Source: Candidatus Saccharimonadota bacterium (GTDB lineage Bacteria; Patescibacteriota; Saccharimonadia; Saccharimonadales; UBA4665). Taken from it: a stretch of DNA of 32,000 bases. The notes below the pieces were generated by a model that did no database searches, had not been told where the DNA came from, and worked only from the letters and a program-made list of their open reading frames with translations. Shown here one piece after another: positions 1 through 31,203 of the stretch (position 1 is its first letter; each line of letters starts with the position of its first letter). The stretch covers positions 180,001-212,000 of the forward strand of contig CP064992.1 in NCBI GenBank assembly GCA_016699935.1, read 5' to 3'. Position numbers and translations under genes: made by a program.

Positions 1-657
1 GTCCTGGTTGGTGAAAAATCTCCAAAATCTATATAGTTACCCTGTGCCGAATTACAATCTTCTGCTTGTATTGTATTTGCGACACAAAATAACAGATACG
101 GCGGGACAACAGATCTGACACTCACGCCATTAGGGAGAATAGCGTACGCAAGTCCAGAGCCGTCTCTATTCGTTCCAGTCGCATCGGTGCTGGCAAATGT
201 CTCAAGTCTCCCAAAGTACGTGTCTGCGGTTGAAGGATTCGTCACGCCAGCCAGTTCAAACGTAACTTGCCCGACTATGCTTGGTGCCGGAACACGAGTA
301 AGAATAAGCTCATTGGCGGTTGTAGTTGGGTGGATAGTAAAACCGCTCATGCCAGTTTGCGAAATAAGTGATGCGCCCAGGAAACTCAGACCCGCAGGGC
401 CAGTACAGGGAGCATCCACGAAAGGGTCCTCGACGCATATTTGAAGACGCACTGACCCCACGTTACCGGCAGATTGACCAGACAAGCTTATTTTATAATT
501 CGCCGTACTCCCAGCCTGTGCGGTGGAAATCTGTAGCCGCCGAGTTGCAAGGCTTAGCAGCCTCAATATAAGAAATGCGCAGCGGTCCTGTTACGCTGAG
601 TAACAAGACCGCTATGATACCGATGCTAGTTATTTTGTGCAGCCGGTTCAGGCGCAT
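1..657 (-). CDS. Secreted surface protein, third paralogue of the 682-3286 family. Only the N-terminal part is present because the gene runs off the window start. There is a frame break after the signal peptide.
   Basis: My own minus-strand translation. ATG at 657-655 is preceded by GGAGAA and gives MRLNRLHKITSIGIIAVLLLSV..., which stops at 495-493. A +1 frame is open from about 590 to position 1 and reads ...LQISTAQAGSTANYKISLSG...FELAGVTNPSTADTYFGRLETFASTDATG. This parallels SIQLSDSGPS...FEVTGVTNPSTLGSFFGRVTTYAND in the 409-aa protein. It is absent from the ORF track, probably because it is edge-truncated and frame-broken. Confidence 0.55.
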
Positions 658-681
658 TATTTCTCCTCTGAAAACTATTCT

Positions 682-1916
682 CTAGAATGTACCCACACCA
701 ATGAGGCTAAAGTTTTGACTGTATATACCTGCTGGAGTTGTCGGTGAGGCTACCGCAGCAAAGGTAATCGTATTATTCACACTATTAGCCTGCTTATCGT
801 CACCACCAGTCGTCTCAGCAATCTTACTGCCGTAGGTGCTGATGACGTTATCGTTTGCCGTGGCGGTGTCCATGAGGTAAGTACCACCAGCGCCAGCCCA
901 ACGAGTGACAGCTGTGTTTTCTCCTGTGAACCACCAGTTGCAGCCGTACCGTTACTGACGAAGGCACCGAATTCTGCAGTGTTGTTCGTGAAGGCGATTG
1001 ATGTCGCCGCGCCAGCGTTGACGGGAGGGATTTCACAGGTTGTGCCGCCATCTCGGCTCAGGCCACCATTACCGCCAGTACAGCTCGTGTTTGCTGCCCG
1101 TAGGTAGAGGGCGTAACCCTGTGAGGCATTCGTGGAAAGTTGAGTGTAAACATTCGCTGAGGCTGGAGTTGCTCCAGTATATCCTAGGACGTAGTCTGGT
1201 GACGAACCAAGAGTAATAGCTGGTGCTGTTGCTGAACCGCATGATCCTGCAGCCGTGAGGTTATTTGCATTGGTTACGGCCACACCGCCTGATGTACAGA
1301 GTGACAGTTGCTCCATGACACGAGCTGTGACCGTGATGGTGTTGACTGTGCTCATGGCAACACCACCGTAGTCGACGTAGTTACCGGTGCTGGTAGCACT
1401 TGCATATGTACCATATGTGTCGTTTGCATAGGTCGTAACACGACCAAAGAACGAACCAAGCGTGCTTGGATTGGTAAGACCAGTTACTTCAAAGGTGAAG
1501 GCACCAGCGGCTTGCGAGCTCGTGTTTGTAAAACGAAGGCGGCTTGCCGTCAGCGTTCCAAGAGACCAGGTGCCGTTCGCGGTCAGACTTGCTGTTGAAA
1601 CGTCCAGGTTCGTTGGTGCTGTACAGTTGTCGTTAATGAGCGGTGAGGCGCTACAAAAGTCAACGACAAAGCTTTGTACAGCAGCAGATGTCGTAAACTT
1701 AATTCTATATGCAACGCTGGTACCACTACCGACACCGCTTGGGATGTTGGAGTTGTTGCTTGGACCGGAATCGCTCATTTGGATAGAGCGGTAGGTGAGT
1801 TGGGCAGCGGAAGCCTTTTGATTTGATACGAACACGGGAGCAACTGCTCCAACGAGTATCGCCACAGCTGCAAATAACGCTGCTGGGCGCTTCAATGAGT
1901 TGCGAGTTATACTCAT
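682..1916 (-). CDS. Secreted T/S/N/G-rich surface protein, tandem paralogue 1 (about 410 aa). Frame break near 905-920.
   Basis: Joins ORFs 777-1991 and 682-873. The likely start is the ATG at 1916 (MSITRNSLKRP...), preceded by AAGGAG. It has a signal-peptide-like N-terminus ending ASAAQ. It is near-identical to 2057-3286 over about 1 kb. At 905-920 the sequence is ttcacaggagaaaac versus ttcgggtgaaaac in the paralogue. One missing G in a G-run would restore GGSQGENTAVT. Confidence 0.75.
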
Positions 1917-1982
1917 TATTTTTCTCCTTTTATAATTTGTTTGTTTTAGAGTTAACGAACGCACTATATCATGGTTATGTTT

Positions 1983-2014
1983 AAAAAACAAGCCCCTTTT
2001 TGCAAAGGGGCTTG
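1983..2014 (-). terminator. Rho-independent terminator after paralogue 2.
   Basis: Perfect 11-bp stem CAAGCCCCTTT / AAAGGGGCTTG (1989-2014) with a 4-nt loop. On the minus strand it is followed by a T-run (the A-run at 1983-1988 on plus). Confidence 0.7.
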
Positions 2015-2056
2015 TGTGGCTGTGGATAACTCGCCTTAGATGTAACTCGCAATCAT

Positions 2057-3286
2057 CTAGAACGTACCCACACCAATGAGGCTAAAATTCTGACTGTATA
2101 TACCAGCTGGCGTTACTGGTGATGCCACCGCAGCAAATGTGATAGTGTTATTGACACTATTAGCCTGCTTATCGTCACCGCCAGTCGTCTCAGCAATCTT
2201 ACTGCCGTAGGTACTGATGACGTTGTCATTTGCCGTAGCGGTGTCCATGAGGTAAGTACCACCAGTGCCAGCCCAACGAGTGACAGCTGTGTTTTCACCC
2301 GAACCACCAGTTGCAGCCGTACCGTTACTGACGAAGGCACCGAATTCTGCAGTGTTGTTCGTGAAGGCGATTGATGTCGCCGCGCCAGCGTTGACGGGAG
2401 GGATTTCACAGGTTGTGCCGCCATCTCGGCTCAGGCCACCATTACCGCCAGTACAGCTCGTGTTTGCTGCCCGTAGGTAGAGGGCGTAACCCTGTGAGGC
2501 ATTCGTGGAAAGTTGGGTGTAAACATTCGCTGAGGCTGGAGTTGCTCCAGTATATCCTAGGACGTAGTCTGGTGACGAACCAAGGGTAATAGCTGGTGCT
2601 GTTGCTGAACCGCATGATCCTGCAGCCGTGAGGTTATTGGCATTGGTTACGGCCACACCGCCTGATGTACAGAGTGACAGTTGCTCCATGACACGGGCTG
2701 TGACCGTGATGGTATTGACTGTGCTCATAGCAATACCACCGTAGTCGACGTAGTTACCAGTGCTGGTAGCACTTGCATATGTACCATATGTGTCATTTGC
2801 ATAGGTCGTAACACGACCAAAGAACGAACCAAGGGTGCTTGGATTGGTAACACCAGTTACTTCAAAGGTGAAGGCACCAGCGGCTTGCGAGCTCGTGTTT
2901 GTGAAACGAAGGCGGCTTGCCGTCAGTGTTCCAAGAGACCAGGTGCCGTTCGCGGTCAGACTTGCTGTTGAAACGTCCAGGTTCGTTGGTGCTGTACAGT
3001 TGTCGTTAATGAGCGGTGAGGCGCTACAGAAGTCAACGACAAAGCTTTGTACAGCCGAGGCAGTCGTAAACTTAATTCTATATGCAACGCTGGTACCACT
3101 ACCGACACCGCTTGGGATGTTGGAGTTGTTGCTTGGGCCGGAATCGCTCAGCTGGATAGAGCGAAGGGTCATTTGCGCTGCCGAGGCTACATTGTTTAGC
3201 AGTACCGGCGCAGCACTACCAACTACGATCGCCAGCGCCATGAGGGCGTTTGTCGGGCGTCGTAGCGACTTATAGTTGATATTCAT
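2057..3286 (-). CDS. Secreted T/S/N/G-rich surface protein, tandem paralogue 2 (409 aa, intact).
   Basis: Intact ORF with AAGGAG upstream of the ATG. The N-terminus (MNINYKSLRRPTNALMALAIVVGSAAPVLLNNVASAAQ) looks like a signal peptide. The mature part has almost no charged residues, contains paired Cys, and ends ...PAGIYSQNFSLIGVGTF. Confidence 0.85.
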   Translation of the reverse strand: MNINYKSLRRPTNALMALAIVVGSAAPVLLNNVASAAQMTLRSIQLSDSGPSNNSNIPSGVGSGTSVAYRIKFTTASAVQSFVVDFCSASPLINDNCTAPTNLDVSTASLTANGTWSLGTLTASRLRFTNTSSQAAGAFTFEVTGVTNPSTLGSFFGRVTTYANDTYGTYASATSTGNYVDYGGIAMSTVNTITVTARVMEQLSLCTSGGVAVTNANNLTAAGSCGSATAPAITLGSSPDYVLGYTGATPASANVYTQLSTNASQGYALYLRAANTSCTGGNGGLSRDGGTTCEIPPVNAGAATSIAFTNNTAEFGAFVSNGTAATGGSGENTAVTRWAGTGGTYLMDTATANDNVISTYGSKIAETTGGDDKQANSVNNTITFAAVASPVTPAGIYSQNFSLIGVGTF

Positions 3287-3439
3287 GTGTGTTTCTCCTT
3301 AGTGTTGTAAAGACTTAATTAATATTTACATCACTAAGATATCACCCATTTATGTAAATTACAAGCATGCGAAAAGAGAAAATTGATTGTTTGTTGTAAT
3401 AATTAATCATTATCGTTGTAAGAAATAATAGTATAGAAG

Positions 3440-4186
3440 TCAGAAGGTCGATGTCGCGACAACAGACTGATTGGTAGTATAGGTTCCGCCAGGAGTTATG
3501 GCAGTAATATTCATAATGTAAGAGATAGTGTAGTCGGTATACCCTGAACTCGACAGTGATTCGGCAATAACATCACCCGAAACATACTTATAGGTGTCGG
3601 GTGTATTGTAGCCAGTTGCATAGGTACCAAAAGAAAATGGTCCAGAGAGCGTACCGTCAGGTCGCTGTACAGGGTCGGCTCCAATATTTGGTGCTGTGTT
3701 ATCACGTAGATTAATACCAAATTGCTCGGTACCTGGGTTAATTGCGCCTGCCGTGGCAAGTGGTGTAATTGCATGACCAGAATTGGTTGGTGTAGAACCG
3801 TAGATCTGCACAACGTAGCCATGAGCTAGGTATGACTTTACGGTAAACGATGCGTAATCATAGCCAGTGCTCGTAGGCGTAATATCACCGAGGTTCACGG
3901 CCGATTTCGTGACATCGATTTCAAGCCATGGGATGCGGTCGGTATTAAACCCAGCTTGAGCTTGGAATTGGTTACCTTTAGTGTTCCCAACCGTCAGTTC
4001 GCCAGCCGACTGCTTTGAGCAGTAGCTGCCAGAGCAGGCGTTCAGTTCGCCACCAGTACCGAAGAATACCTCGTTAACCTGATAGCTAGAAGACGATGAT
4101 TGCTGCGCAAAGGTTACAGCAACCCCACAAGTAAGCGCAAATGCGACTGAGGTGAGCGAGAGACGAAACAGCGTTTGTATTTTCAT
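3440..4186 (-). CDS. Secreted 248-aa protein sharing the C-terminal module of the 409-aa paralogues.
   Basis: Intact ORF with a signal peptide (MKIQTLFRLSLTSVAFALTCGVAVTFAQQ). By-eye alignment: HGYVVQIYG / QGYALYLRA; ITPLATAGAINPGTEQFGINLRDN / IPPVNAGAATSIAFTNNTAEFGAFVSN; C-termini TPGGTYTTNQSVVATSTF / TPAGIYSQNFSLIGVGTF. Confidence 0.8.
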   Translation of the reverse strand: MKIQTLFRLSLTSVAFALTCGVAVTFAQQSSSSSYQVNEVFFGTGGELNACSGSYCSKQSAGELTVGNTKGNQFQAQAGFNTDRIPWLEIDVTKSAVNLGDITPTSTGYDYASFTVKSYLAHGYVVQIYGSTPTNSGHAITPLATAGAINPGTEQFGINLRDNTAPNIGADPVQRPDGTLSGPFSFGTYATGYNTPDTYKYVSGDVIAESLSSSGYTDYTISYIMNITAITPGGTYTTNQSVVATSTF

Positions 4187-4313
4187 AATATAAATCTACT
4201 CATGCTTATTTTCTCGCATTTTGTGTTTTGATGCAAACTTGGCAACAATATTATTCCTTTTACACAGCTCATGAGGTATGATAAGACAAGTATAAGCATA
4301 AGAGAAAACCAGT

Positions 4314-5312
4314 ATGGCAGACGACGAAACAAAGAATGGTGAGGATTCGAATAGTCTCGAATCGTCAGAAAGTAGTTCGTTAGAAGCGAGCGAGGGCAGT
4401 AATAGCCTCGAGAAAGATGCTGGTACAACTGGCAAAATTGACGACACGCCCCTTTCAGCCCAACAAAATGGCTCGTTTGCACAGCGCATTGTTAGCAAAG
4501 TAAACATTTATCTGTTGCTATTTATTTTTTTGCTGGCTATCGCTGGTGGCATTATACTCATAACCTATCTCAATAGTAAAAAACAGGAAAAAAGCACCAT
4601 ACAAACACAGTCGCTCAATAGCGATACCTTAAAACAGCTCGCCACAAGCGACGTTACCGTCGGCCAGCCGAAACAGATTTTGAGTGTCCAAAGCAACGCG
4701 GTGTTTGCGGGAAAAGTCCTTATTCGCGACAGCCTTGAGGTAGCTGGCCCAATTCAAGTAGGTGGTAGCTTGAGCGTACCAGGCATAACTGTTTCGGGGA
4801 ATAGCGTCCTTGAGCAACTTCAGATAAATAAGAATCTCAGTGTCCAAGGGGATGCCTCCATTCAGGGTCAGCTTGCCATTCAGAAAGGGTTGAGTGTTGC
4901 AGGGGGAGGAACGTTTGGCGGTTCACTAACGGCGCCCGGAATCACTGTGAATACGTTACAGCTAAACGGAAACTTAACTCTAACAAAACACATTGTTATT
5001 GGCGGATCTACTCCTGGCAGAGATACAGGCACGGCTCTTGGTGGTGGCGGTACGGTAGCATTGAGCGGTTCCGATACGGCGGGTAGTATAAACATTAATA
5101 CAGGTTCAGGTCCGGTAGCTGGCTGTTTTGCCACGGTTAATTTTACGCAGAAGTACAATACGACACCGAACGTCATTGCGACACCCATTGGCTCCAACGC
5201 CGCACTTGTCGGCTACTACGTGAACCGCAGCCCCTCGAATTTCAGCATCTGCGCCGCAAATAACCCGCCAGCAAACGCAAGCTTTGGTTTTGACTATTTC
5301 ATTGTGGAATAA
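4314..5312 (+). CDS. Single-pass membrane protein. It has an acidic S/E-rich cytoplasmic N-terminus, one TM helix, an extracytoplasmic short-repeat region (probably beta-helix or bactofilin-like) and a C-terminal globular domain.
   Basis: Intact 332-aa ORF, divergent from 3440-4186. TM segment: IYLLLFIFLLAIAGGIILITYL. Repeats of the type LSVPGITVSGNSVLEQLQINKNLSVQGDASIQGQLAIQKGLSVAGGGTFGGSLTAPGITVN. The fold assignment is inference only. Confidence 0.8.
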   Translation: MADDETKNGEDSNSLESSESSSLEASEGSNSLEKDAGTTGKIDDTPLSAQQNGSFAQRIVSKVNIYLLLFIFLLAIAGGIILITYLNSKKQEKSTIQTQSLNSDTLKQLATSDVTVGQPKQILSVQSNAVFAGKVLIRDSLEVAGPIQVGGSLSVPGITVSGNSVLEQLQINKNLSVQGDASIQGQLAIQKGLSVAGGGTFGGSLTAPGITVNTLQLNGNLTLTKHIVIGGSTPGRDTGTALGGGGTVALSGSDTAGSININTGSGPVAGCFATVNFTQKYNTTPNVIATPIGSNAALVGYYVNRSPSNFSICAANNPPANASFGFDYFIVE

Positions 5313-5401: not shown

Positions 5402-5723
5402 TTACACGTCTAAAAATACGACAACACTATCGGCTTTAACGTGCATAATGCCGTTTTGAATTCGAATCGTTTCTTCGCCTTTTTCGGTTCGCACCACAAT
5501 GTCGCAAGGGACAAGGAGGGTAATGAAGTTATGGTGCTGCTGCAGAATATCAAAAGGACCGGTTTGGTTCGCTGCGCTGATACTCTTGGCCTGTCCTCAA
5601 AATACACTTTGTACGGCGCATATATCTTGACGAACATCAATCCATTGCCCTCAGGTGAGCCGGAGTCACTTGGACTATCGTCGGATACGATTTCGCCCGT
5701 GCTTGCGTCTTGCCTGGTCGCCA

Positions 5724-5724
<1 letters not shown>
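5402..5724 (-). CDS. atpC: F1 ATP synthase epsilon subunit. Short form with the beta-sandwich only. Frame break near 5585.
   Basis: ORF 5410-5724, once re-framed after ...YFEDR, gives AKSISAANQTGPFDILQQHHNFITLLVPCDIVVRTEKGEETIRIQNGIMHVKADSVVVFLDV* (stop at 5402-5404). This matches the epsilon N-terminal domain pattern. It lies immediately downstream of atpD, with a GTG at 5724 overlapping the atpD stop, or an internal ATG (MFVKIYAPYK). No C-terminal helical hairpin is encoded. Confidence 0.7.
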
Positions 5725-8012
<2,288 letters not shown>

Positions 8013-8118
8013 CCGTCGCTCCCTCTGGTCGTTTTAGGGGGAAGGGCTAAGAGCAGAGGGCTGAGTTCAAGCTGTGCGATACCTTTGCCCTGTGCACTAT
8101 ATCCTAGACCGTGGTGAT
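8013..8118 (-). repeat. atp intergenic repeat, copy B (upstream of atpG).
   Basis: Homologous to 7040-7146. It ends in AGAGGGAGCGACGG followed by the atpG ATG. Confidence 0.7.
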
Positions 8119-8645
8119 TCATGGCTTTTTCTCCGGGATTACTGCATCCATAACGTGGCCTTTTGGTTGCTTGGCCTTTTGTTTTTCAAGCTCAACAGAC
8201 ATCATTTCATCAACCTTTTGCTCCTCGACTTTTTCGGGGTTTGTGCCCTCGGTCTTCGCCTCAGCTTTGGAGCCTTCATTGTTAGTGTCGTGCTTTTTAC
8301 GCCGAGTAATTTCTTGAATAACGGGTGAGATGGTTCGCCGGCATGAGCCTGCGCGACTGGGGTTACAGCCGCTGGTGGCTCTGCGTCAGGATTATCGCTT
8401 TCCTTTTTCTAAATCAGGTGCTAGTTGTACGGGTTCTTCAGAGGCCGTCTGCGCTTGAGTCTCCTTAGACTCTGCCGAACTACTAGTAATACCCCAGGGT
8501 CATTTTCTTGTTGGTCTTTTTCGGCCGACGTCTCTTTGGGAGCCGCCTCGTGCTGCTCACCTGAAGCAGCAGGGTCGCCTGGTGAATCCGCCTTTTTTTC
8601 TTCGGGCCCTTGGCCTTTGCTACGTCCTTAGTACCTTCAGCATTG
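8119..8645 (-). other. Purine-rich tract between the atpA core and repeat B. It may be a disordered K/E/D/A/P-rich C-terminal tail of atpA (needs about 5 frame corrections), a separate ORF, or non-coding.
   Basis: Minus-strand frames read, in pieces: [20 protein letters not shown] / KKADSPGDPAASGEQHEAAPKETSAEKDQQENDPG / ITSSSAESKETQAQTASEEPVQLAPDLEK / KESDNPDAEPPAAVTPVAQAHAGEPSHP / VIQEITRRKKHDTNNEGSKAEAKTEGTNPEKVEEQKVDEMMSVELEKQKAKQPKGHVMDAVIPEKKP*. Every junction lies at a homopolymer run. Confidence 0.4.
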
Positions 8646-10133
8646 TTACTTTCGGCATCTTTTGCCCGTCTGGTTTATCTGCTGTATGTTCTGTATCATC
8701 AGACGGCTTTGGTACGCCCTTGACACATTCGCCGACAAGCATATCGTGAACCTTTTGATAGTCATCGTCTTTTTTTCAACCTTTTTGGCAAAGTCGTTCG
8801 CATTGAGTTTTAGGGCATTGATATCCAATAGGGCACCATCTTCCAAGTTGAGCACAATATCGAGCATAAGCTGCTGTGCCATAAGTGAAAATGTGTCCCC
8901 GGAGCTTGTGTGAGAAGTTCAAATACTCGCTTGCCAGTGGCGAGCGCTTTTTGCCTCAGAACCAAGTTCGGAACCAAAGTGAGAAAACTCTTCTGCTTGA
9001 CGGTAACTAGCGAGCATTTTGAGCGTCTGTGCAGCAAGTTCTTTTTGCCGCTTGTTATGACCAACACCCCCTGCCCGGGTCACACTGAGGCCGATATTCA
9101 GCGCAGGACGAATACCGTTTCGGAACGTATCCATGTCGAGGATCCACTGGCCGTCGGTAATAGACATGATGTTTGTCGGCAAGTAGGCGGTGATATCGCC
9201 GTTTGCAGCATGCACCACCGGGATTGAAGTGAGACAACGGCCGGTGCTATCGAGACGACCAGCCCGCTCAAGGAGCGAGGAGTGAGCGTAAAACATGTCG
9301 CCAGGGTAGCTATCACGTCCCGGACTAACACCAGAGAGCAACGCAACTTCGCGGTAGGCGTGAGCATGGCTGGTGAGGTCATCATAGACGATGATAGTGT
9401 CTTGATCGCACTTCTGCCATAGGTATTCAGCCATAGCACAAGCGACATAGGGTGCAATGTAGCTCATGATAAGCGACTCAAACATGGTACTGACGACGAC
9501 GATTGCTTTTTCCATACCACCGTTCTCCTGGAGACGTGTCAGCAAAGTATCAACATCGCTACGTCGCTTGGCTATGAGGCAGTACACAACTATCTGGTCG
9601 GTGTTTTTTTGGTTTATCGCGAGCTGCGTGACTACCGTACTCTTACCAGATTTGCTATCCCCGAGGAGCGCCATGCGCTGCCCACGCACCATCGGAAACA
9701 GGGAATCGATGGCCGTCACGCCACTTTCAAGTTGATCCTCCACGAGTTTACGAGTATAGAGTGGCGGTGCAGTATTAAACACCGGCCAGACCGCGTCGGC
9801 TGGCACTGGCCCCTTGCCGTCCAGGGGGTCACCAGTCACAGAAACAACACGGCCGACAAAGTCCTTACCAACCTTACACACCAGTTCTTGGTGCTGTAAC
9901 ACGGCTACCGTACCAACATGGAGGGGTTCTGACCCAAGGTGGAGCACAAGCACATATTCTTCAAGCACTTGGTTAATAAAGCCCTTACTCCCATCTTCAA
10001 ACATAACGAGTGCATGGAGAGCAGATGGCTGTAGACCGCTCACCCGAATAAGGAATTTATCGACTGCTATAACTTCGCCGACTGGCTTACCCGATTCAAC
10101 CAGTTTCTCGAAATGCTGGTTGCTGAAACTCAT
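8646..10133 (-). CDS. atpA: F1 ATP synthase alpha subunit (core about 495 aa). Two frame breaks at about 8925 and about 8890.
   Basis: ORF 8919-10133 has Walker [10 protein letters not shown] and alpha-like sequence. Restoring one A in an A-run and one G in a G-run continues it as ...[47 protein letters not shown]...[16 protein letters not shown]. This resembles the ...LMQEINQTGG... segment near the E. coli AtpA C-terminus as I recall it. Confidence 0.95.
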
Positions 10134-10669
10134 GCTGGCGCCTCCACCGTCTGGGCTTGCGTTTCGGCTGTCGGTTGCGTATTGGACTCCCGGAGCCTTT
10201 TCATGAGTATTTCTCGTTTTTCGGTAAATGTTTTTCTCAGCGACATGTCGAAGTAGTGATTAGTTGTGCGTAGCACACAACCTGCACCGATTCCTGGCTG
10301 AAGACCAATTGCCACCAACACGTGTGGATGCACCTGTGTTCGTAACCATGTCGTCAGCTTCATGAGAAAGTCTGGGGTCGGATCGGCACTAAAGCTCATA
10401 TGAACCCTGGGAGCCTCTTTACGGAGCAACTTTAGGAATGCAAGCAAACTTGTACGAGCATGGGCATCACGTAAATCTAGTTTGTTTGTTTCAGCAAGCT
10501 GATCCATAAGTGCACTTAATTTTGGGAGCTGAACATAACTGCCGGTTCGAATTTTATCGCTCGAGAGCTTTGCCTCAAGCCGCTCAAGTTCACGAATTAG
10601 TCTACCAAGATCAATCATGCCAACAACCCCTACAGGTAAAACCGGTGCAGCCTGGGTCTCAGGCGCCAT
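10130..10669 (-). CDS. atpH: ATP synthase delta (OSCP-like) subunit.
   Basis: Intact 179-aa ORF with a 4-nt overlap onto the atpA start. The C-terminal part (...[31 protein letters not shown]...) fits the delta pattern (...GG..v..g....D.S.r..L). Operon position also fits. Confidence 0.8.
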
Positions 10670-11278
10670 GATTGATATCCTGAATTATGGCTTCACGATT
10701 CGCCTCTAGGTCAGCAAGGATGTACTCAAGTTGATCGTTCAAGTCAATTTGGTCACCTATGGCAGCGAGCACGTAGTGGTTGATTATATCCGTCATATTT
10801 TGCTCAAACCGTTCCACGAGCTGCTGCTTTTCAGCTACAATCTGTTGCTGCACCTGCTGACCGAGCTGAGCGCGTTGTTCTTCAATCGCAGTATTGGTTT
10901 TCTGGATCGAGTCGATGGCAAGCTGTTTGGCATCGTTGATTGACTGCTCGTACTTGGCAAATTCTTCTTTGAGATTTCGGGTAATCTCTTCCTTCATATA
11001 CTCGTTCAGTTGGCTCGTTGTCAGGCGCAAATCCTGCTGCAAGAACATAGCATTTTCAGAAATAATCTTCTCGAAGTGAAGTCTACCCCTGTTACGGAGC
11101 TCTTCCCGAAAGGTATCATTAAAAATGTGCTCGACGTCTTCTTCTGCCGCTTTTTCAATGTCTGAATTGTCATTATTCTTCTTTTTGTACCTACTGAGCC
11201 AAGTTTAATTGCCAACCATATGAAAGCAAGCGTCGCAGAAAACAGACTCCCTATTAGTGCCAGCTGCCAGATTGTCAT
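10659..11278 (-). CDS. atpF: ATP synthase b-like peripheral stalk subunit. Frame break near 11185.
   Basis: Joins ORFs 11021-11278 (TM helix MTIWQLALIGSLFSATLAFIWLAI) and 10659-11048 (long charged coiled-coil-like region). One missing A in an A-run links ...GSVGTKKKNNDNSDIEKAAEEDV... to ...ENAMFLQQDLRL. It overlaps the atpH start. Confidence 0.65.
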
Positions 11279-11308
11279 AGATTTGTCCCCACCTCTATAC
11301 GCTTGTGT

Positions 11309-13230: not shown

Positions 13231-14412
13231 TCAAGAGATATGAGAAATCTTGGTTATCTGTAATAGTGTTGTTCTAATTACTTTTGTTATCTCTGTTAGA
13301 GCCTGTATGAATCTTTCTATGTCGGGCATGGTGGTAGAGCGGCCCATGGTAATACGTAGACTGCTTCGGGCAGCATCGTCGCTGACGCCCATGGCGCGCA
13401 GCACGTGGCTCGGCTCCTCAGAACTGGCGCTGCAAGCCGAGCCGGCCGCCGCGAGAAATCCTCGCTCTTCGAGCTGGATGAGTACGCGTTCGTTATCAAA
13501 CCCGGGTAGTGTAATATGTATGTTGTTTGGCAGACGATACTTCAGTGAACCATTGATTATTACACCTGGGATTTTTTGAGATAAGAGGCGGATAGCTACA
13601 TTTTTCACTTCATTGAGCCTAGTGGCTTCAAATTGTCGCACAGACTGTGCCTGCTCAAGCGCCTTAGCAAACCCCACTGCTCCTGCAACGTTTTCGGTCC
13701 CGCTGCGCAGCCCTCGTTCTTGGCCACCGCCCCTTATGATTGGAGATAGCTTGACAGAACTTGCCGCGTAGATCACGCCCGTTTGTTTCTGGCCATAGAT
13801 TTTACCCCCGTTTAGGGTCATAAGGTCGACCCCTAGACTTGCGACTGAAAGGCTGAGATAATTCGCCGCTTGACAGGCATCAGTATGGAAATATAGCGGC
13901 AAGTCGTTCCCTGCCTTTTTTCTTTCGGTGCGAATTTCAGCCAGCACAGCCGAAATCTGACGCAGTGGTTGCGTAGTACCAACCTCATTATTGGCATACA
14001 TAACGCTTACCAGCACGGTATTGTCAGCAATTTTTTGCCGCAGGCTACCCGGGTCTACCCTCCCCTGCTCTGTTACAAACGCAACGGAGCAATTAAATTG
14101 TTGCGCCGCCGCCAATACAGATTCATGTTCAATAGCGCTAACCGCAGCGGAGCAATTTGGAAAATTTGCCATGACACCTGCAACGGCTAGATTGTTCCCT
14201 TCCGTGCCACCAGCGGTAAAAATAACTTCGGTCGGACGCACACCAAGCCAGTGCGCGACACTCCCCCGTGCAGCTTCAAGCGCTTCCCTTGCCTGCCGAG
14301 CCGGCAAATACGTGGCCGATGGGTTATAAAAGACATCAGAAAAATACGGTTGCATGGCCGCAAGCACATCGCTATCAACCGGCGTCGCCGCCGCATGGTC
14401 TAGGTAGATCAT
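13231..14412 (-). CDS. Cysteine desulfurase, class V aminotransferase (IscS/NifS type).
   Basis: 393-aa ORF. PLP-lysine region LNGGKIYGQKQTGVIY, active-site region AAGSACSASSEEPSHVLRAMG, and N-terminus IYLDHAATP. Confidence 0.9.
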   Translation of the reverse strand: MIYLDHAAATPVDSDVLAAMQPYFSDVFYNPSATYLPARQAREALEAARGSVAHWLGVRPTEVIFTAGGTEGNNLAVAGVMANFPNCSAAVSAIEHESVLAAAQQFNCSVAFVTEQGRVDPGSLRQKIADNTVLVSVMYANNEVGTTQPLRQISAVLAEIRTERKKAGNDLPLYFHTDACQAANYLSLSVASLGVDLMTLNGGKIYGQKQTGVIYAASSVKLSPIIRGGGQERGLRSGTENVAGAVGFAKALEQAQSVRQFEATRLNEVKNVAIRLLSQKIPGVIINGSLKYRLPNNIHITLPGFDNERVLIQLEERGFLAAAGSACSASSEEPSHVLRAMGVSDDAARSSLRITMGRSTTMPDIERFIQALTEITKVIRTTLLQITKISHIS

Positions 14413-15155: not shown

Positions 15156-16028
15156 TTATGTAAGCTTGAGAAGCTTTAGTGCATTTGCGGTGGTAGATTC
15201 TGCGAGATGTTCGACAGATTCGTCCCGTAATGCCGCTAGATACTCCGCCGTCTGCATAACATGCTTAGGCTCACACACTTTACCACGAAAGGGCTTGGGA
15301 GTCAAGAAGGGAGCGTCAGTTTCTAACAGGAGTCGGTGTTGTGGAATTGTGCGATATGTCACAAGCTGTACTTCGTCTCGCGTAAACGTTGCTATCCCGT
15401 TTACACCTATGTACAGCCCCTGCGCTACCGCGCGCTCCATATTTGCCTGACTGTCGGTGAAACTGTGCAGCACACCACGCACACCTTGATAACTCTCAAA
15501 AATCGGCCAAAAATCATCAAATGCGTCGCGCACGTGAAAGCTGAGTGGCAGATCGTGTTGTAGTGCCAGCTCTATTTGCATGCGCAACACCGCTTCCTGG
15601 TCTTCCTTGGGCGAGTGCCCGTAATAATAATCAAGCCCACACTCCCCGACTGCCACCACTTTTGCCGCTGTCGCCAACTGTCGAAACCGTTCAAGCACCT
15701 CTGGTAAAATACCAACTTTACTCGCTTGGGAGGACAGTCCTCCTGGGTTCGATTTTTGTGGTGTAGTGTAGTTTTTGGCTTCGTGGGGATGGATTCCGAT
15801 ACTCGCCCAGACGCCGTCGTGATTCTGGGCAAATTGCATCGCAAGTTCGCTATCGGCTAGGGTCGTACCGATGACTATCATGCGCGTCACACCCGCCGCG
15901 CGTGCAGCATCCAAAACCGATCCCGCACTCCGCTCAACCCTGTCGGCATGCCATTTGTCATGTACGGGCGTGAGAGCAACTGCTATCTCATGCACATGGC
16001 AGTGCGTATCGAATAATTCAAGTGTCAC
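15156..16028 (-). CDS. tatD: TatD-family metal-dependent hydrolase / DNase.
   Basis: Motifs LFDTHCHV, GIHPHEA, VVAVGECGLDYYY and ETDAPFLTP. I prefer the GTG at 16028 (MTLELFDTHCH), preceded by GGAG and lying 5 nt after the metG stop. The alternative is the ORF-track start at 16100, which overlaps metG. Confidence 0.85.
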   Translation of the reverse strand: MTLELFDTHCHVHEIAVALTPVHDKWHADRVERSAGSVLDAARAAGVTRMIVIGTTLADSELAMQFAQNHDGVWASIGIHPHEAKNYTTPQKSNPGGLSSQASKVGILPEVLERFRQLATAAKVVAVGECGLDYYYGHSPKEDQEAVLRMQIELALQHDLPLSFHVRDAFDDFWPIFESYQGVRGVLHSFTDSQANMERAVAQGLYIGVNGIATFTRDEVQLVTYRTIPQHRLLLETDAPFLTPKPFRGKVCEPKHVMQTAEYLAALRDESVEHLAESTTANALKLLKLT

Positions 16029-16032
16029 AGTG

Positions 16033-17484
16033 CTACTCCTGCGGCGCGGTAAGTTCAAGCTTTGGGAAAAGCGTAGTTTCAGCAGGGTGGACGGTGCCAC
16101 CTACAAACATTGCCTGGATTTTGGCCGCCGTTGCCGGCAGGAATGGTTCAAGCAGCTGTGCGATTTCAAGTAGGTCGCTCACGAACCCAGCGAGCACTTC
16201 GCGCAGATGGTCTTGGTCGTCGGTTTTCGCAATAACCCATGGTTTTTGGGTATCGATAAGCTGATTGAGGCCCCGCACCTGCTCCCAAACACTGTCAAGC
16301 GCACGGTCGAACTTACAAAGCGCAATTGCCTCACCGTACGCCCCCATGTCATGTTCAGCCTCGGGCACATCGCCAATTACGCCACCCTGGTATTTCTGTA
16401 TCATTGCAGTTGTCCGTTGGACCGCATTGCCGAGCTCGTTAGCAAGCTCATTATTGTAGGCTGTATCGAATGCTTCCCAGCTAAAATCGCCGTCATCATA
16501 GCTCGGCACATGGCGCAGGAAGTAGTATCGGAAGGCGTCAGCACCATATTTTTCGATAACTTCATTGGGGCTAACACTATTGCCCAGAGATTTACTCATT
16601 TTTTTGCTGTCTACCGTGACATAGCCGTGAACGTAAAGCTGTTTCTGGATAGGTAGGCCAAGACCGAGCAAAATCCCAGGCCAAATTGCCGCATGGAAAC
16701 GTAAGATTCCCTTGCCGACCACCTGAACATTCGCTGGCCAATACTTCTTAAAATCATCGTGCTCGGGGTAGCCAAGCACCGTTATATAGTTGAGGAGCGC
16801 GTCAAACCAGACGTATATAACCTGGCTTGGGTCGCCTGGCACCGGAATACCCCAATCTATCTTATCTTTTGGACGTGAAATGCTAATATCGTCAAGCCCT
16901 TCACGCAGTAGCGACAGAATTTCGTTGCGCCTGGTGGTTGGCGTTACGAGAAATACATTTTTCTCTATGGCTTCACGAATCTGCTCGGTGTAGTTACTGA
17001 GCCGAAAAAAGTAGTTTTCTTCCTCGATTTTTTCGTAGGGACGATTATGGTCTGGGCAAACTCCCTTGTTTTCTTGCACAGTCGTTTCAGTGAAAAACTC
17101 TTCATCGCCCGTGCAGTACCAACCAACGTATTTGTTTTTGTAAATATCACGAGCGAGCGACTTCCATATAACCTGGACTCGCTCTGCATGAGCTTTATCT
17201 GTTGTACGGATGAAGCGGTCTGGCTTAACATTGAGTGCAGCGATTAGTTCACGGAACTTTTCTGACATTTCGTCGGTAAACTTTTGCGGGTCTACTTTGA
17301 GTTCGGCTGCTTTTTCAGCTATTTTGCCGCCGTGTTCATCGGTACCCGTGCTGAAAATGGTGTCTTCACCGCGTGCCCTGGCCGCGCGTGCCCGTACATC
17401 TGCCATGACAAATTCCATGGCATGTCCCAGGTGTGGTTCGCCGTTGACGTATGGTATGGAGGTCGTTACAAAATAATTGCTCAT
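16033..17484 (-). CDS. metG: Methionyl-tRNA synthetase.
   Basis: Intact 483-aa ORF. HIGH-type motif PHLGHA and a KMSKS motif present. TAGAAT at 17491-17496 lies 6 nt before the ATG, which suggests a leaderless start. Confidence 0.95.
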   Translation of the reverse strand: MSNYFVTTSIPYVNGEPHLGHAMEFVMADVRARAARARGEDTIFSTGTDEHGGKIAEKAAELKVDPQKFTDEMSEKFRELIAALNVKPDRFIRTTDKAHAERVQVIWKSLARDIYKNKYVGWYCTGDEEFFTETTVQENKGVCPDHNRPYEKIEEENYFFRLSNYTEQIREAIEKNVFLVTPTTRRNEILSLLREGLDDISISRPKDKIDWGIPVPGDPSQVIYVWFDALLNYITVLGYPEHDDFKKYWPANVQVVGKGILRFHAAIWPGILLGLGLPIQKQLYVHGYVTVDSKKMSKSLGNSVSPNEVIEKYGADAFRYYFLRHVPSYDDGDFSWEAFDTAYNNELANELGNAVQRTTAMIQKYQGGVIGDVPEAEHDMGAYGEAIALCKFDRALDSVWEQVRGLNQLIDTQKPWVIAKTDDQDHLREVLAGFVSDLLEIAQLLEPFLPATAAKIQAMFVGGTVHPAETTLFPKLELTAPQE

Positions 17485-19740: not shown

Positions 19741-19824
19741 TGGTGCGCGGGCGGGACTTGAACCCGCACGCCTTTTGGGCACAGCATTTTAAGTGCTGAA
19801 TGTCTACCATTCCATCACCCGCGC
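19741..19824 (-). tRNA. tRNA-Leu (anticodon UAA).
   Basis: Minus strand reads GCGCGGGTG...CAGCA-CTTAAAA-TGCTG, then a long variable arm, then GCGGG-TTCAAGT-CCCGC, acceptor and CCA. The junction between T-stem and acceptor is one C short of a canonical 5+7 bp arrangement. This is possibly another homopolymer deletion. Confidence 0.9.
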
Positions 19825-19832
19825 ATATTATC

Positions 19833-23680: not shown

Positions 23681-24008
23681 TCGAATTCCTCCTCTTATGT
23701 ATGTATAACTATACACGATTTGCTAAGTTCTTAAGTCGGAATCTGACCTACACCCACTTTTTTCGTTGTCATCCCGACCCCGCATCAAGTGCGGGGCAGG
23801 CTTCGTGGAGGGATCTTTTCGGTTTCAATATCATGGAGATCTTTCGACTGCGCTCAAGATGACAGCCCAAATAGTGAGTGTAAGTGAGAGTCGGAATAGT
23901 CGGATAGACGGTCCACATTTCATGATCTACTCGCCTGCCACCCTTTTCGCCGGTACGACTACTCTACGCTATTCACATCCCGCTTATGCGTGCTATAGTG
24001 AAACCAAT

Positions 24009-25783
24009 ATGTGGGTACAACTCACTAACCCGTTTGAAAACACCGTGCTATCTGCATTGGTTGCTTCTGTGCCGATTGTGGCGCTTTGCGTCATACTACT
24101 CAGCCGTAAGATGGCGGGGTGGAAAGCAAGCCTTGTTACGCTTGGACTCGCGCTCCTTGTCGCTATGTTTGCCTTTACCATGCCACCTCACCTCGCCCTG
24201 CTGTCAACGGCGTATGGCGCTCTCCAAGGGCTTTTTCCAATTGGCTGGATAGTGCTGAATGCGGTGCTACTCTATAACATCAGTGTGCGAACTGGTAGTT
24301 TCGCGATAGTACGCGATACCATAGAATCGATTACTGTTGATCGGCGTTTGCAAGCACTGCTGATTGCCTTTTGTTTCGGTGCCTTTCTGGAAGGTTCGGC
24401 CGGGTTTGGCGCACCAGTGGCGATAACGGCAGGCATGCTAGTGGGGCTTGGCTTCAATGCTCTGTACGCTGCTGGCATATGTCTCATCGCAAACACAGCG
24501 CCGGTTGCATTCGGGGGTATCGGCATTGCCGTTATCACGGCTGGGACAGTGACGGGCATCGACCCGAACCTTATCAGCCGTATGGTGGGACACCAACTAC
24601 CGTTCATTGCGGCCATCATTCCACTGTGGCTCACGGTCATCATTGCGGGGTGGAAAGGCGCGCGGGAAATCTGGCCAGCGCTGGTAGTGGCAGGCGGATC
24701 GTACGCCCTGACCATGTTTGCGACGGCTTCGTTCGTAGGGCCAATGCTACCAGATATTCTCTCGGCCGTTGTGTCTATCAGCGCCATGGTTATTCTGCTC
24801 AAATTTTGGCAGCCCAAAACAGTCTGGCGGTTCCCGAAAGAGCGCACCGAAACAGCCATCGCCCATACCAAAACCCATCATCATTCGACTAGCACCATTG
24901 TTCGTGCCTGGACGCCGTTTGTCCTCCTCGTTATCTTTGTGGGAAACTGGGGCAGCACGGGCATCAAGGCGCTACTGGACCACACGAGCGTGAAAATTCC
25001 TTCGGCGCACTCGATCATGCCATACTGATTGGCGATAAGCCCAAAGAAATTGTGTACAGTTTTGGTTGGCTGTCAGCAGCTGGTACGGCAATACTGTTTG
25101 CAGCAATCTTATCAGCGCTACTGCTTCATATGCCGTGGCGTGCCTTTTGGGAAACAGTGCAAAAAACCCTGCGCGAGCTTTCTAAACCACTGCTTACCAT
25201 CGCAGCAGTCGTTGGGTTTGCGTATCTCGCGAATTTCTCTGGCATGTCCGCAGCACTCGGCCATGCGCTGACCGTAACTGGACACTGGTTCCCGCTCATC
25301 GCACCGCTGCTTGGTTGGCTGGGCGTGTTCATCACTGGTAGCGATACGTCGTCCAATGCCCTTTTTGGCGGCATTCAGCAGCAGACGGCACACACGCTCG
25401 GGATCGATCCAACACTCACAGTCGCGGCAAATACCAGTGGCGGCGTGACGGCCAAGATGATTTCACCGCAGAGCATCGCCGTGGCGACGGGTGCGACGGG
25501 GCTGACTGGGCAGGAAGGCACGCTCTTTCGGTTTACCATTTTGCACAGTTTGGCGCTAGTGAGCATCATTGGTGTCATTACCTACCTGCAGGCCTACCAC
25601 CTACCCTGGATGATTCCTAAAGCTGCCGAAGTTGCCGCCGCCGCCAGCCAGACACGCATCGGCGGTGGCGAGCTGGTACTCATAGCTCTTTCGGTCGTGG
25701 CTATCATCGTCACGGCAGTCGTCGCCCTCCCAAAGCGCCTACCCAAACCAAAGGGGTCTTCTGATCAAAGCGTCACAGAATAA
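24009..25783 (+). CDS. lctP: L-lactate (LctP/glycolate) permease. Frame break near 25010.
   Basis: Two collinear fragments (to 25028 and 25052-25783) with LctP-like multi-TM sequence. Restoring one T in ccttc gives KIPFGALDHAILIGDKPKEIVYSFGW. I place the start at MWVQLTNPFENTVLSAL (24009), with TGcTATAGT at 23991-23999. Confidence 0.9.
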
Positions 25784-31126: not shown

Positions 31127-31203
31127 GCGGGTGTAGCTCAGTTGTTTAGAGCGCGTCCTTGCCAAGGACGAGGCCAGGGGTTAGAGTCCCCTCACCCGCA
31201 CCA
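31127..31203 (+). tRNA. tRNA-Gly (anticodon GCC) with a non-canonical D-loop and T-loop.
   Basis: GCGGGTG-TA-GCTC-AGTTGTTTA-GAGC-G-CGTCC-TTGCCAA-GGACG-AGGCC-AGGGG-TTAGAGT-CCCCT-CACCCGC-A-CCA. All four stems pair perfectly. The D-loop lacks GG (GTTT instead of GGT). T-loop position 56 is A instead of C. Confidence 0.85.

Follow-up and report, generated by a model that had tools for sequence, protein, structure and literature searches.

The window analysed here, a stretch of 32,000 nucleotides, belongs to a Saccharimonadia MAG with the locus tag IPL68. At its left end, positions 1–5312 contain four co-directional minus-strand genes for Sec-exported-type, S/T/N/G/A-rich proteins with paired cysteines, together with a divergent gene for a beta-helical, membrane-anchored protein, and the locus extends past the left edge of the window. 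The features are as follows.

1–657, minus strand: 5' portion, 218 codons long when repaired, of a gene truncated by the window edge, predicted to encode a PamE-type two-domain Pam pilin, assigned through its ortholog in a close relative
682–1916, minus strand: tandem paralog of the gene at 2057–3286, predicted PamB-type shaft pilin, 410 aa after repair, assigned by DNA identity to that gene
1988–2015, minus strand: terminator-like hairpin (12-bp stem with 6 G-C pairs, T-run) just 3' of the stop codon of the gene at 2057–3286, from a consensus scan
2057–3286, minus strand: intact gene for a 409-aa two-domain Pam shaft pilin of predicted PamB type, assigned by AlphaFold2, hhalign and similarity to the locus L037
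3440–4186, minus strand: pamT, first gene of the operon, encoding the 248-aa single-domain tip pilin PamT, assigned by an NF058579 equivalog match
4187–4313: 127-bp intergenic region that separates pamT from the divergent tail-fibre-like gene, from the gene positions
4314–5312, plus strand: gene for a conserved "tail fibre-like" membrane protein of 332 aa, assigned by homologues, AlphaFold2 and Foldseek

The coordinates and strands that the original prediction gave for four consecutive minus-strand genes are correct, but two of these genes (682–1916 and <1–657) are not intact ORFs. The richness in T/S/N/G/A and the scarcity of charged residues that it described are borne out by the 409-aa protein (58.7% S/T/N/G/A, 8.1% K/R/D/E) and by PamT (48.8% and 10.5%, respectively), and signal peptides can be predicted for all products, each of which begins with basic residues followed by a hydrophobic segment and an A-x-A-like site. 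Both shared modules are recovered as well: the HMM of the 409-aa protein family matches the fragment at 1–657 (E 7.5e-21) through the common N-terminal module, and profile-profile comparison of this family with the PamT family detects the common C-terminal module (96.2% probability, E 2.7e-9; residues 242–409 of the 409-aa protein and 101–248 of PamT).

PamT, which is identical (100%) to IPL68_01130, scores 303.9 bits against the NCBIfam equivalog NF058579 (CPR_pilus_PamT; cut-off 240) and 164.7 bits against NF058581; the NCBIfam models for the Pam family are these two and NF058578. Relatives of PamT are encoded in 417 genomes. The Pam pilus, a surface fibre of ultrasmall CPR bacteria, was first described in 2026, and filaments of PamA and of PamB have been solved by cryo-EM (Troman et al., bioRxiv 10.64898/2026.03.03.709456). 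The intergenic region at 4187–4313 is presumed to carry putative promoters for both directions, and a consensus scan yielded one weak promoter-like match within it, on the minus strand (4245–4218).

The intact shaft pilin consists of a signal peptide (residues ~1–36), a nine-strand N-terminal domain (NTD, 40–189), a conserved linker (~190–207) and a C-terminal domain (CTD, ~203–409). In the AlphaFold2 model, a confident one (pLDDT 88.7) that shows the nine NTD strands and the CTD, the signal-peptide segment is a helix (5–30), the linker is unpaired in the monomer, and the C-terminal strand (401–407) folds into its own domain. Conservation peaks in two windows, the linker (193–207) and a CTD stretch (384–398), which is the pattern seen in PamA and PamB (Troman et al.). 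The six cysteines, in three pairs, and the mature mass of 37.4 kDa fit PamB, for which three Cys pairs and 38.7 kDa have been reported (Troman et al.). The protein has no NCBIfam or Pfam match at E ≤ 1, and its membership in the Pam family rests on profile-profile and transitive evidence. It is 89% identical to its counterpart in the closest relative, L001 (CP064993.1), and this ortholog (L001-409) matches NF058581 with E 0.005; the shaft pilin of the window is 37.6% identical (E 5e-53) to the pilin in the PamB position of L037, which itself matches NF058581 (L037-380, E 1.5e-12). The profile of the family matches 1331 cluster representatives at E ≤ 1e-3. Judged by similarity to L037, whose gene order agrees with the order of the Candidatus Mycosynbacter amalyticus accession numbers, and by size and Cys count, this protein and its tandem copy appear to be shaft pilins with two domains that have diverged from known members and come closest to the PamB type. 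The hairpin downstream of the intact gene is possibly an attenuator that raises the level of the major pilin relative to the downstream gene products.

Over 1109 nt, the DNA of the tandem copy is 96% identical to that of the intact gene, the only gap being 2 nt long. Two extra bases near nt 926–927 split it into two ORFs (777–1991 and 682–873), and the two pieces score 395.7 and 108.7 bits against the A1 HMM. With these bases removed, the product is 410 aa long and differs from the intact pilin at 28 of 410 positions, 19 of which are in the signal peptide. In the gene at the window edge, one extra base near nt 553 comes after the signal-peptide codons and shifts those of the mature part into another frame. 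Accordingly, the 351-aa ortholog from L001 aligns in two frames (residues 1–35 with nt 657–553 and residues 35–218 with nt 554–3; 76% identity). This ortholog scores 144.8 bits against NF058581 (Pam_pilin_C; cut-off 55) and is closest to the gene in the PamE position of L037 (37% identity, E 2e-67). By position and similarity to L037, size and Cys count, the truncated gene is predicted to encode a PamE-type pilin.

Given that both genes are interrupted and that the indels sit outside simple homopolymer runs, so that real mutations are possible, the locus might be decaying, in which case both would be true pseudogenes and PamT and one pilin the only functional members. We consider this scenario improbable. 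The genes for the alpha, gamma and epsilon subunits of the ATP synthase, for a 207-aa protein and for lactate permease are also split in the window, and among the 13 L001 proteins with matches in the window, 6 align in two reading frames, including the essential ATP synthase subunits alpha, gamma and epsilon. The breakage of the ATP synthase genes and of lactate permease makes assembly error likely and points to a general error rate of the assembly. Moreover, outside the indel, the mature part of the repaired tandem copy differs from the intact pilin at only 9 positions and contains no stop codons, and the L001 orthologs are intact. Thus, the frameshifts in the two pilin genes are most likely assembly errors.

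In L001, the atp operon is followed by the tail-fibre-like gene (on the reverse strand), pamT, genes for proteins of 409, 410, 351, 331 and 307 aa, and mnmA. The 307-aa protein matches the PamR equivalog (386 bits, cut-off 300), PamR having a C-terminal TM helix, and in the 331-aa protein, a signal peptide is combined with an Ig-like domain of the WxLIP_PGBD family and a C-terminal TM helix that precedes a basic tail. A check of gene-cluster conservation was positive: the whole order from the tail-fibre-like gene to PamR is found in ~56 of 80 related species-level genomes, and the contig breaks off early in most of the rest. The ATP synthase and tail-fibre-like neighbours match those that adjoin the pam operons described by Troman et al. 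Positions 1–5312 are, with high confidence, best explained as the promoter-proximal part of the Pam pilus operon of a Saccharimonadia (CPR/Patescibacteria) bacterium. Leftwards from 4187–4313, the operon would comprise pamT (3440–4186), two PamB-type genes (2057–3286 and 682–1916) and the gene for a PamE-type adaptor pilin (<1–657), followed beyond the window edge, as in syntenic relatives, by a gene for a single membrane-anchored chaperone with two Ig domains and by that for the membrane anchor PamR. The proposal of a dedicated cell-surface fibre system with paralogous beta-sandwich subunits was therefore sound, but the system, while real, is already named and structurally known. It had been described as uncharacterised, a view that confident homology to a known system was to overturn, and PamT matches an NCBIfam equivalog of a pilus for which cryo-EM structures exist. 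The fibre is probably also a dominant envelope structure, as proposed; in M. amalyticus, homologous pilins rank 2nd and 9th in protein abundance (supplement of Troman et al.).

The Pam set of M. amalyticus consists of PamA, B, C, D, E, R and T (Troman et al.). The present system resembles it in the PamT equivalog, the two-domain pilins with a conserved linker and a Pam-type CTD, the paired cysteines, the Sec signal peptides, the Saccharimonadia host, the membrane-anchored chaperone and PamR downstream (here seen in relatives), and the neighbours, which are the ATP synthase operon and a tail-fibre-like gene. However, the operon here is shorter, with PamT, 1–3 PamB-type pilins, a PamE-type pilin, a single chaperone (closest to the one in the PamC position) and PamR, and lacks a large PamA-type pilin and a second chaperone. 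The shaft pilin gene is immediately 3' of pamT and tandemly duplicated, and the CTD of its product has diverged beyond the reach of the NCBIfam domain model.

By homology with the cryo-EM structures of M. amalyticus PamA and PamB, we infer that the subunits would be exported via Sec and that the chaperone, tethered by its C-terminal TM helix, would cap the open groove of a subunit until displaced by the linker strand of a neighbour (donor-strand exchange), giving a thin, extended, disulfide-stabilised fibre. No usher would be involved because there is no outer membrane. PamT would cap the distal end, PamE and PamR would end the fibre and fasten it to the membrane, and the fibre would probably be the first structure to contact the host bacterium. 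The suggested kinship with donor-strand (fimbrial-type) assembly is upheld in principle. The C-terminal strand, which had been put forward as the donor, is most likely not the donated one; in the model it is tucked into its own domain, and the linker is one of the two conservation peaks. In Pam pili, the donated strand is the NTD–CTD linker (Troman et al.), and this is most likely also the case for the shaft pilin analysed here. Chaperone-usher pili (Pap/Fim; class 5 CFA/I, with CfaB and CfaE) similarly have an incomplete Ig-like fold completed by a strand of the neighbour, a two-Ig-domain chaperone and a tip subunit without a donor strand. In contrast to these, the Pam system lacks an usher and an outer membrane, its chaperone is membrane-tethered and matches Pfam WxLIP_PGBD, with no PapD-family match listed at E ≤ 1, and its pilins have an extra N-terminal domain and donate an internal linker rather than an N-terminal extension (Troman et al.).

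In a Foldseek search of PDB copies that lack the Pam structures 25PZ and 25QA, the top matches of the shaft pilin were chaperone-usher CFA/I pilins (3f83, 6k73, 4y2l), with low TM-scores (~0.2). The same search also returned the two-Ig-domain MSCRAMMs ClfB, FnBPA and SdrG at E ~1e-5, and the chaperone-like protein matches WxLIP_PGBD of WxL clusters, which are thought to form wall-bound complexes; the products could hence be monomeric adhesins attached to the wall or membrane, or else a surface layer (MSCRAMM- or WxL-like), and form no filament. This reading appears highly improbable: LPxTG motifs and WxL domains are missing, the PamT and PamR equivalog matches and the synteny tie the locus to a system with filaments seen by cryo-EM, and the most conserved parts are the linker and the CTD stretch near the C-terminus.

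Apart from the assignment of the locus to the Pam pilus, we observed that Pam chaperones match Pfam WxLIP_PGBD (DUF916; PF06030) of Firmicute WxL clusters (57 of 62 Pam chaperone homologues do so), a relationship that is not mentioned in the Pam preprint (Troman et al.). These clusters encode WxL proteins, thought to be wall-bound and not to form filaments, and WxLIP (DUF916-DUF3324-TM), predicted to fill a gap in its WxL partner with a strand of its own (Hassan et al. 2023, PMC10599100). In architecture, the Pam chaperone corresponds to WxLIP, with two Ig-like domains between a signal peptide and a C-terminal TM helix; DUF3324 was not detected, and none of the Pam subunits has a WxL domain or dual W-x-L motif.

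The divergently encoded 332-aa protein, identical (100%) to IPL68_01135, has the features originally ascribed to it: its N-terminus is acidic, it contains a single hydrophobic segment, and its strands are short and repeated. It also gives a weak match of bactofilin type. The acidic tail is followed by a TM segment (56–89), a bactofilin/beta-helix-like stalk and, at the C-terminus, a beta-sandwich head whose Cys pair (C271, C313) is invariant; in the AlphaFold2 model, pLDDT is ~90 for the head and low for the stalk. Sequence matches to bactofilin, Mu gp45 and short-tail-fibre families are weak, all under the curated thresholds. A structural search of the PDB gave no significant match (best E 0.02), and Foldseek against BFVD retrieved phage proteins (best E 5.6e-9), tail-fibre and H-type-lectin matches included. 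The protein probably forms a beta-helical fibre, possibly trimeric, that is exposed and bears a lectin-like head, and it may lie outside the pilus structure proper. Its gene adjoins pamT in 79 of 80 loci (the 80th begins at pamT), divergently in 77, and is central in the neighbourhood network of Troman et al.; it is also better conserved than the pilins (57–100% identity among the 120 matches listed, out of 1898 homologues). These observations would fit an integral Pam component that serves as a membrane platform or anchor for pilus growth, which we regard as unlikely. The ATP synthase genes are equally syntenic, so that adjacency alone is weak proof, and the protein has neither a Pam pilin domain nor a detectable acceptor groove. 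The role of membrane anchor, once suggested for it, is proposed for PamR, which is encoded further downstream, shows an N-terminal donor strand in published models (Troman et al.) and ends in the TM helix noted above. The structural matches, being phage tail-fibre, tailspike and lectin-like, are better accommodated by an independent fibre or adhesin. This protein resembles phage tail fibres, tailspikes and bactofilin beta-helices in its stalk of short repeated strands and in the matches of its beta-sandwich head, and it differs from the phage proteins in being encoded by a cellular gene and in having an N-terminal TM anchor and an acidic tail.

The locus at the left end of the window is a further Pam operon, and because the Pam system was named and structurally solved in 2026, its discovery has been overtaken. 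In Candidatus Mycosynbacter amalyticus, cryo-EM filaments are built of two pilins, PamA (55.3 kDa) and PamB (38.7 kDa, with three cysteine pairs), the linker of one subunit filling the C-terminal domain of its neighbour; the pam operon also encodes PamT (the tip), PamE, PamR (an RbmA-like membrane anchor) and two PapD-like chaperones with C-terminal transmembrane helices, PamC and PamD, and it adjoins ATP synthase genes and a 'tail fibre-like' gene (Troman et al., bioRxiv 10.64898/2026.03.03.709456). The original prediction recognized a surface-fibre system in this stretch, and the locus indeed is a real, conserved pilus operon. However, the system was taken to be uncharacterised, whereas the family is already named, modelled in NCBIfam and solved by cryo-EM. 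Positions 1-5312 of the window hold four co-directional genes on the minus strand and a divergent gene on the plus strand, with coordinates that agree with those first read from the sequence:

<1-657, minus strand: g1, putative PamE-type pilin, cut by the left window edge; signal peptide and body in different frames
682-1916, minus strand: g2, putative PamB-type shaft pilin, a near-duplicate of g3, split into ORFs 777-1991 and 682-873
2057-3286, minus strand: g3, putative PamB-type shaft pilin; intact, 409 aa
3440-4186, minus strand: g4, PamT; intact, 248 aa
4314-5312, plus strand: g5, tail fibre-like membrane protein, divergent from g1-g4; intact, 332 aa

Against NF058579, the NCBIfam equivalog model of the CPR-type pilus protein PamT (cut-off 240 bits), g4 scores 303.9 bits (E 7e-91). 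The other operon members, of which the chaperone and PamR genes are outside the window, were read in L001 (CP064993.1), the closest relative with DNA, whose g3 is 89% identical and in which the atp operon is followed by a 339-aa g5 ortholog in reverse orientation, PamT, genes for proteins of 409, 410, 351, 331 and 307 aa, and mnmA. The 351-aa protein, the ortholog of g1 (76% identity), reaches 144.8 bits against NF058581, the model of the Pam pilin C-terminal domain (cut-off 55), and the 307-aa protein is PamR by the equivalog model NF058578 (386.1 bits; cut-off 300), as is its counterpart in L037, a locus with a longer operon (372.8 bits). The 331-aa protein (L001:14952-15947), with a signal peptide, an Ig-like domain, a transmembrane segment at residues 284-318 and a basic tail, fits the PamC/PamD architecture.

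A genome scan detected a PamT relative in 417 species-representative genomes. Among the best 80 of these 417 PamT loci, 56 show the full order of tail-fibre-like (TF-like) gene, PamT, one to three g3-type genes, a g1-type gene, a chaperone and PamR, with mnmA next in 51 of the 56; a chaperone is found in 57 of the 80 and PamR in 56, the remaining loci being mostly contigs that end early. ATP synthase genes and the tail-fibre-like gene adjoin the operon in nearly all of these 80 loci, and in the window atpC and atpD occupy positions 5410-7004, next to g5. The conservation and co-occurrence in relatives that would be expected of a genuine system are thus fully borne out. Most of the best 80 loci have the short, single-chaperone operon. 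Longer operons with extra pilins and two chaperones occur in a minority (L037:9902-17671, L040:9914-18991 and L048:9911-20596); the genes of L037 are ordered as implied for M. amalyticus, and L040 and L048 have a different order with four two-domain pilins. A second ORF matching the PamR-derived HMM lies after mnmA, outside the core operon, in L012, L013, L022, L038, L047, L049, L062, L066 and L071, and the equivalent site in L001 marks the start of a gene of at least 788 aa.

Several other identities of the pilins were considered and rejected. A classical chaperone-usher pilus is contradicted by the syntenic L001 operon, which contains no usher-sized gene and no match to a PapD-family chaperone: in Pfam searches, there was none for the L001 chaperone at E <= 1 and none among 62 chaperone homologues at E <= 1e-3. 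The pilins are not WxL proteins, given that g1, g3 and g4 have no WxL match in Pfam at E <= 1 and that the sole W-x-L is a single WSL in the N-terminal domain of g3, whereas the WxL domain needs a dual W-x-L motif. Nor does a sortase pilus or an MSCRAMM fit, there being no LPxTG-like motif in g3, g4, g5 or the L001 pilins, all of which end in GTF or ATF. An S-layer identity was rejected as well. Searches of Pfam and NCBIfam with g3, the g1 fragment and g5 yielded nothing above the curated cut-offs, with only chance-level matches for g3, and PHROGs gave no match for g3 or g4 and weak ones only for g5. In the PDB copies searched, which lack the Pam structures 25PZ and 25QA, no relative of g3 or g4 came up by sequence, and the Foldseek results included no Pam entry.

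Despite this, several lines of evidence from sequence comparison and structure modelling argue that g3 belongs to the Pam pilin family. Although g3 itself has no match to NF058581, or elsewhere in NCBIfam, at E <= 1, the members of its family grade into that model: its 409-aa ortholog in L001 scores 17 bits (E 0.005) and a 380-aa member in L037 scores 47.8 bits (E 1.5e-12), both below the cut-off of 55. Furthermore, the C-terminal domain of g3 is homologous to that of PamT, with a profile-profile probability of 96.2% (E 2.7e-9) between the g3 and g4 families over these domains and an alignment that takes in the terminal motif TP(A/G)G.Y...TF. The shared C-terminal module initially proposed is therefore real, and so is the shared N-terminal module, since the g3-family profile matches the g1 fragment with an E-value of 7.5e-21. 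The unusual composition noticed at the outset is likewise confirmed: g3 consists of 58.7% S/T/N/G/A and 8.1% K/R/D/E and contains six cysteines, or three pairs, of which five are invariant and one is nearly invariant across 95 family members. The predicted signal peptides also stand, in that every product opens with a signal-peptide-like hydrophobic segment, which follows basic residues in g1-g4 and in the L001 chaperone and PamR; the AlphaFold2 model of g3 places a helix at residues 5-30, within the predicted signal peptide, and the mature protein has a mass of 37.4 kDa.

In the same model (pLDDT 88.7), the N-terminal domain comprises nine strands within residues 40-189, no strand of the monomer pairs with residues 190-202, and residues 203-407 form an all-beta C-terminal domain, with the last strand, 401-407, as part of the fold. 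The best matches of the model in the PDB are CFA/I chaperone-usher subunits (3f83, 6k73 and 4y2l), followed by two-Ig-domain MSCRAMM adhesins and RbmA, all with low TM-scores. The two most conserved 15-residue windows of the g3 family fall in the C-terminal domain (384-398) and in the linker (193-207), and the same pattern, a conserved donated linker and its binding site in the C-terminal domain, has been described for PamA and PamB (bioRxiv 10.64898/2026.03.03.709456). Along with the PamT-like C-terminal domain and the graded matches to NF058581, the predicted fold and the conserved windows place g3 among the Pam pilins. The family is large, its profile matching 1331 cluster representatives at E <= 1e-3, of which 522 remain at E <= 1e-30. 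Glycosylation of g3 appears plausible in view of its 12 N-x-S/T sequons, its very high Ser and Thr content and, by analogy, the extra density on Ser356 of PamA, which is consistent with a post-translational modification and was modelled as a sugar (bioRxiv 10.64898/2026.03.03.709456).

Because M. amalyticus is outside the best 80 PamT loci, pilin types were assigned against L037, the long operon of which runs PamT, PamA, PamE, PamD, PamR, PamB, PamC, as the M. amalyticus accession numbers imply, rather than against M. amalyticus sequences or structures. The criteria for a PamB were a mass of about 38.7 kDa, three cysteine pairs, an N-terminal domain without the insertion of about 100 aa found in PamA and best reciprocal similarity to WP_260763280.1. 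The 'g1type' HMM, for which all phmmer hits were used, proved to be a general model of Pam pilins, and subtypes were set by pairwise BLASTP instead. By this measure, g3 is closest to the L037 pilin in the PamB position (37.6% identity, E 5e-53), compared with 24% for the pilins in the PamA (E 1e-8) and PamE (E 4e-6) positions, and the best match of the g1 ortholog is the pilin in the PamE position (37%, E 2e-67). Judged through L037, g3 and g2 are therefore provisionally assigned to the PamB type, a call that for g3 also draws on the cysteine pairs and the mass, and g1 to the PamE type. The single chaperone is 38.8% identical to the chaperone in the PamC position and 26% identical to that in the PamD position.

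Two of the pilin genes are interrupted in the window. With two extra bases near nt 926-927 removed, g2 encodes 410 aa, and its product departs from g3 at 28 positions, of which 19 fall within the signal peptide; g1 contains one extra base near nt 553. The sequence context of these indels shows no simple homopolymer runs, and homopolymer error was accordingly rejected as their cause; for the same reason, we keep a slight chance that g1 and g2 are genuine pseudogenes. Against such decay, however, the breaks extend beyond the pilin genes: for 6 of the 13 L001 proteins that match the window, the alignment is spread over two reading frames (ATP synthase alpha, gamma and epsilon, the product of a 207-aa gene, g2 and g1), the L-lactate permease is split into ORFs 23766-25028 and 25052-25783, and the frame changes of these further genes relative to L001 lie in 5410-11300 and 23766-25783. 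That so many other genes, essential ones included, are broken at this rate implies an error-prone assembly, and the g1 and g2 frameshifts are probably artefacts of it. The products of g4 and g5 match IPL68_01130 and IPL68_01135, respectively, of a 'Candidatus Saccharibacteria bacterium' MAG at 100% identity; the IPL-series locus tags presumably denote a long-read activated-sludge MAG set. Other features annotated in the window are as follows:

13231-14412: class-V aminotransferase
15156-16100: TatD-family DNase
16033-17484: methionyl-tRNA synthetase
19742-19825: tRNA Leu-TAA
26683-26756: tRNA Cys-GCA
31127-31203: tRNA Gly-GCC

The duplication of the shaft pilin gene appears to be a recurrent feature of these operons. 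In the window, g2 and g3 are 96% identical over 1109 nt of DNA, and their similarity starts abruptly after the signal-peptide region. Tandem copies of the gene occur in 15 of 62 loci (among them L001, L006, L008, L014, L035, L036, L039, L042, L055 and L072), and in most of these, a copy resembles its partner in the same genome more closely than copies from other genomes, up to complete identity in L006. The within-genome likeness, together with the abrupt onset of the g2/g3 similarity, suggests recurrent duplication or gene conversion. A strong terminator-like hairpin (1988-2015, minus strand; a 12-bp stem and a T-run) separates the g3 stop from the g2 start, and no similar element follows g2. 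This putative attenuator would be in keeping with strong expression of the major pilin and partial read-through.

For this locus, we obtained the identities of the parts, predicted domains, conservation patterns and synteny, and the mechanism is drawn by homology from the Pam system. Under this scheme, the subunits would be exported by Sec, the membrane-tethered chaperone would cap the open C-terminal groove, and the chaperone strand would then be replaced by the linker strand of the next subunit. PamT would form the tip and PamB-type subunits the shaft, PamE and PamR would close the fibre and tether it to the membrane, and no usher would be involved. Such donor-strand exchange, with the linker entering the C-terminal groove of the next subunit, gains indirect support from the conservation of linker residues 193-207 and C-terminal residues 384-398. 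The class of mechanism envisaged in the original prediction, donor-strand complementation, is retained, but the donor is most likely the internal linker and not the C-terminal strand, which in the model belongs to the fold of its own subunit.

The affinities of the chaperone point beyond the Pam system. PF06030 (WxLIP_PGBD, DUF916) is matched by 57 of 62 Pam chaperone homologues (alignment A4) at E <= 1e-3, and by the L001 chaperone with 34.3 bits against a gathering score of 27.3; the remaining Pfam matches of Pam chaperones are to generic Ig/Fn3 families. A profile search of PDB sequences with the chaperone family had EfmWxLIP1 as its top match, a weak one (E 0.18). The WxLIP proteins of Firmicute WxL clusters appear similar in architecture to the Pam chaperone: they comprise DUF916 (PF06030), DUF3324 and a C-terminal transmembrane segment, and the Pam chaperone combines a PF06030 match with a transmembrane segment, although DUF3324 was not detected in Pam chaperones. 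For WxLIP, too, insertion of a strand into a gap of the WxL partner has been predicted (PMC10599100). The Pam preprint mentions neither WxL nor DUF916 (bioRxiv 10.64898/2026.03.03.709456). If the chaperones truly are WxLIP/DUF916 members, Pam pili and Firmicute WxL clusters would be two branches of one old, usher-less system of single-membrane bacteria with a membrane-tethered chaperone, which would contradict the claim that the Pam machinery is exclusive to CPR. Strand-complementation chemistry, and perhaps fibres, would then be predicted for WxL proteins, and the new CPR pilus would be tied to a widespread, poorly understood Gram-positive surface system.

The neighbouring gene g5 had been proposed to encode an anchor or platform of the fibre. 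Because PamR already fits the anchor role, an independent adhesive fibre appears more likely. With 1898 homologues, 120 of them listed at 57-100% identity, g5 is more conserved than the pilins, and the invariant cysteine pair of its C-terminal domain argues that this part lies outside the cell. AlphaFold2 predicts the C-terminal head (residues 235-329) with a pLDDT of about 90 and the stalk with a low one, as expected if the stalk is oligomeric. A structure search of the PDB with g5 gave nothing significant (best E 0.02), the matches being to phage receptor-binding proteins, tailspikes, carbohydrate-binding modules and a snail H-type lectin; in BFVD, significant matches to proteins of uncultured phages (best E 5.6e-9) are followed by weaker ones to tail-fibre proteins and to an H-type-lectin domain protein (E 0.013). 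None of the sequence matches to bactofilin, Mu gp45 and a short-tail-fibre family reaches its threshold. These results agree with the label 'tail fibre-like' in the preprint, and the weak likeness of the modelled head to H-type lectins and phage receptor-binding heads suggests glycan binding. In L001, a 224-aa gene without a family match lies between atpC and the tail-fibre-like gene (L001:8145-8819); it is absent from the window and present in a few loci only.

Pam pili are thought to provide the first contact of CPR/Saccharibacteria with the host bacterium, and their pilins rank among the most abundant cell proteins in the one cultured example. In Saccharimonadia from wastewater and soil, the common form of the operon is the short, single-chaperone version, and its major pilin, apparently a divergent PamB type, is missed by the curated NCBIfam and Pfam models, so that automatic annotation keeps calling it hypothetical. 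The match of the chaperone to WxLIP, the recurrent pilin duplication and the short operon as the majority form go beyond the preprint; of the leads here, the WxLIP link and the tail-fibre-like neighbour deserve follow-up. Taken jointly, the propositions that Pam chaperones are true WxLIP/DUF916 members, that the short operon (PamT, PamB-type, PamE-type, one chaperone and PamR) is the common minimal form with a repeatedly duplicated and homogenised shaft gene, and that g5 is a dedicated host-recognition partner of the pilus make up a tentative picture that we consider possible but rather doubtful as a whole.

A few PamT relatives carry labels from other groups. L029, L070 and L079 come from MAGs labelled Dormiibacterota, Bacillota and Pristimantibacillus, and protein P0216 is named Polaromonas; L070 has a full Pam operon, and L029 and L079 show the TF-like-PamT context before the contig ends. 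Most likely, these are mis-binned or mislabelled Saccharimonadia contigs and not occurrences outside CPR.
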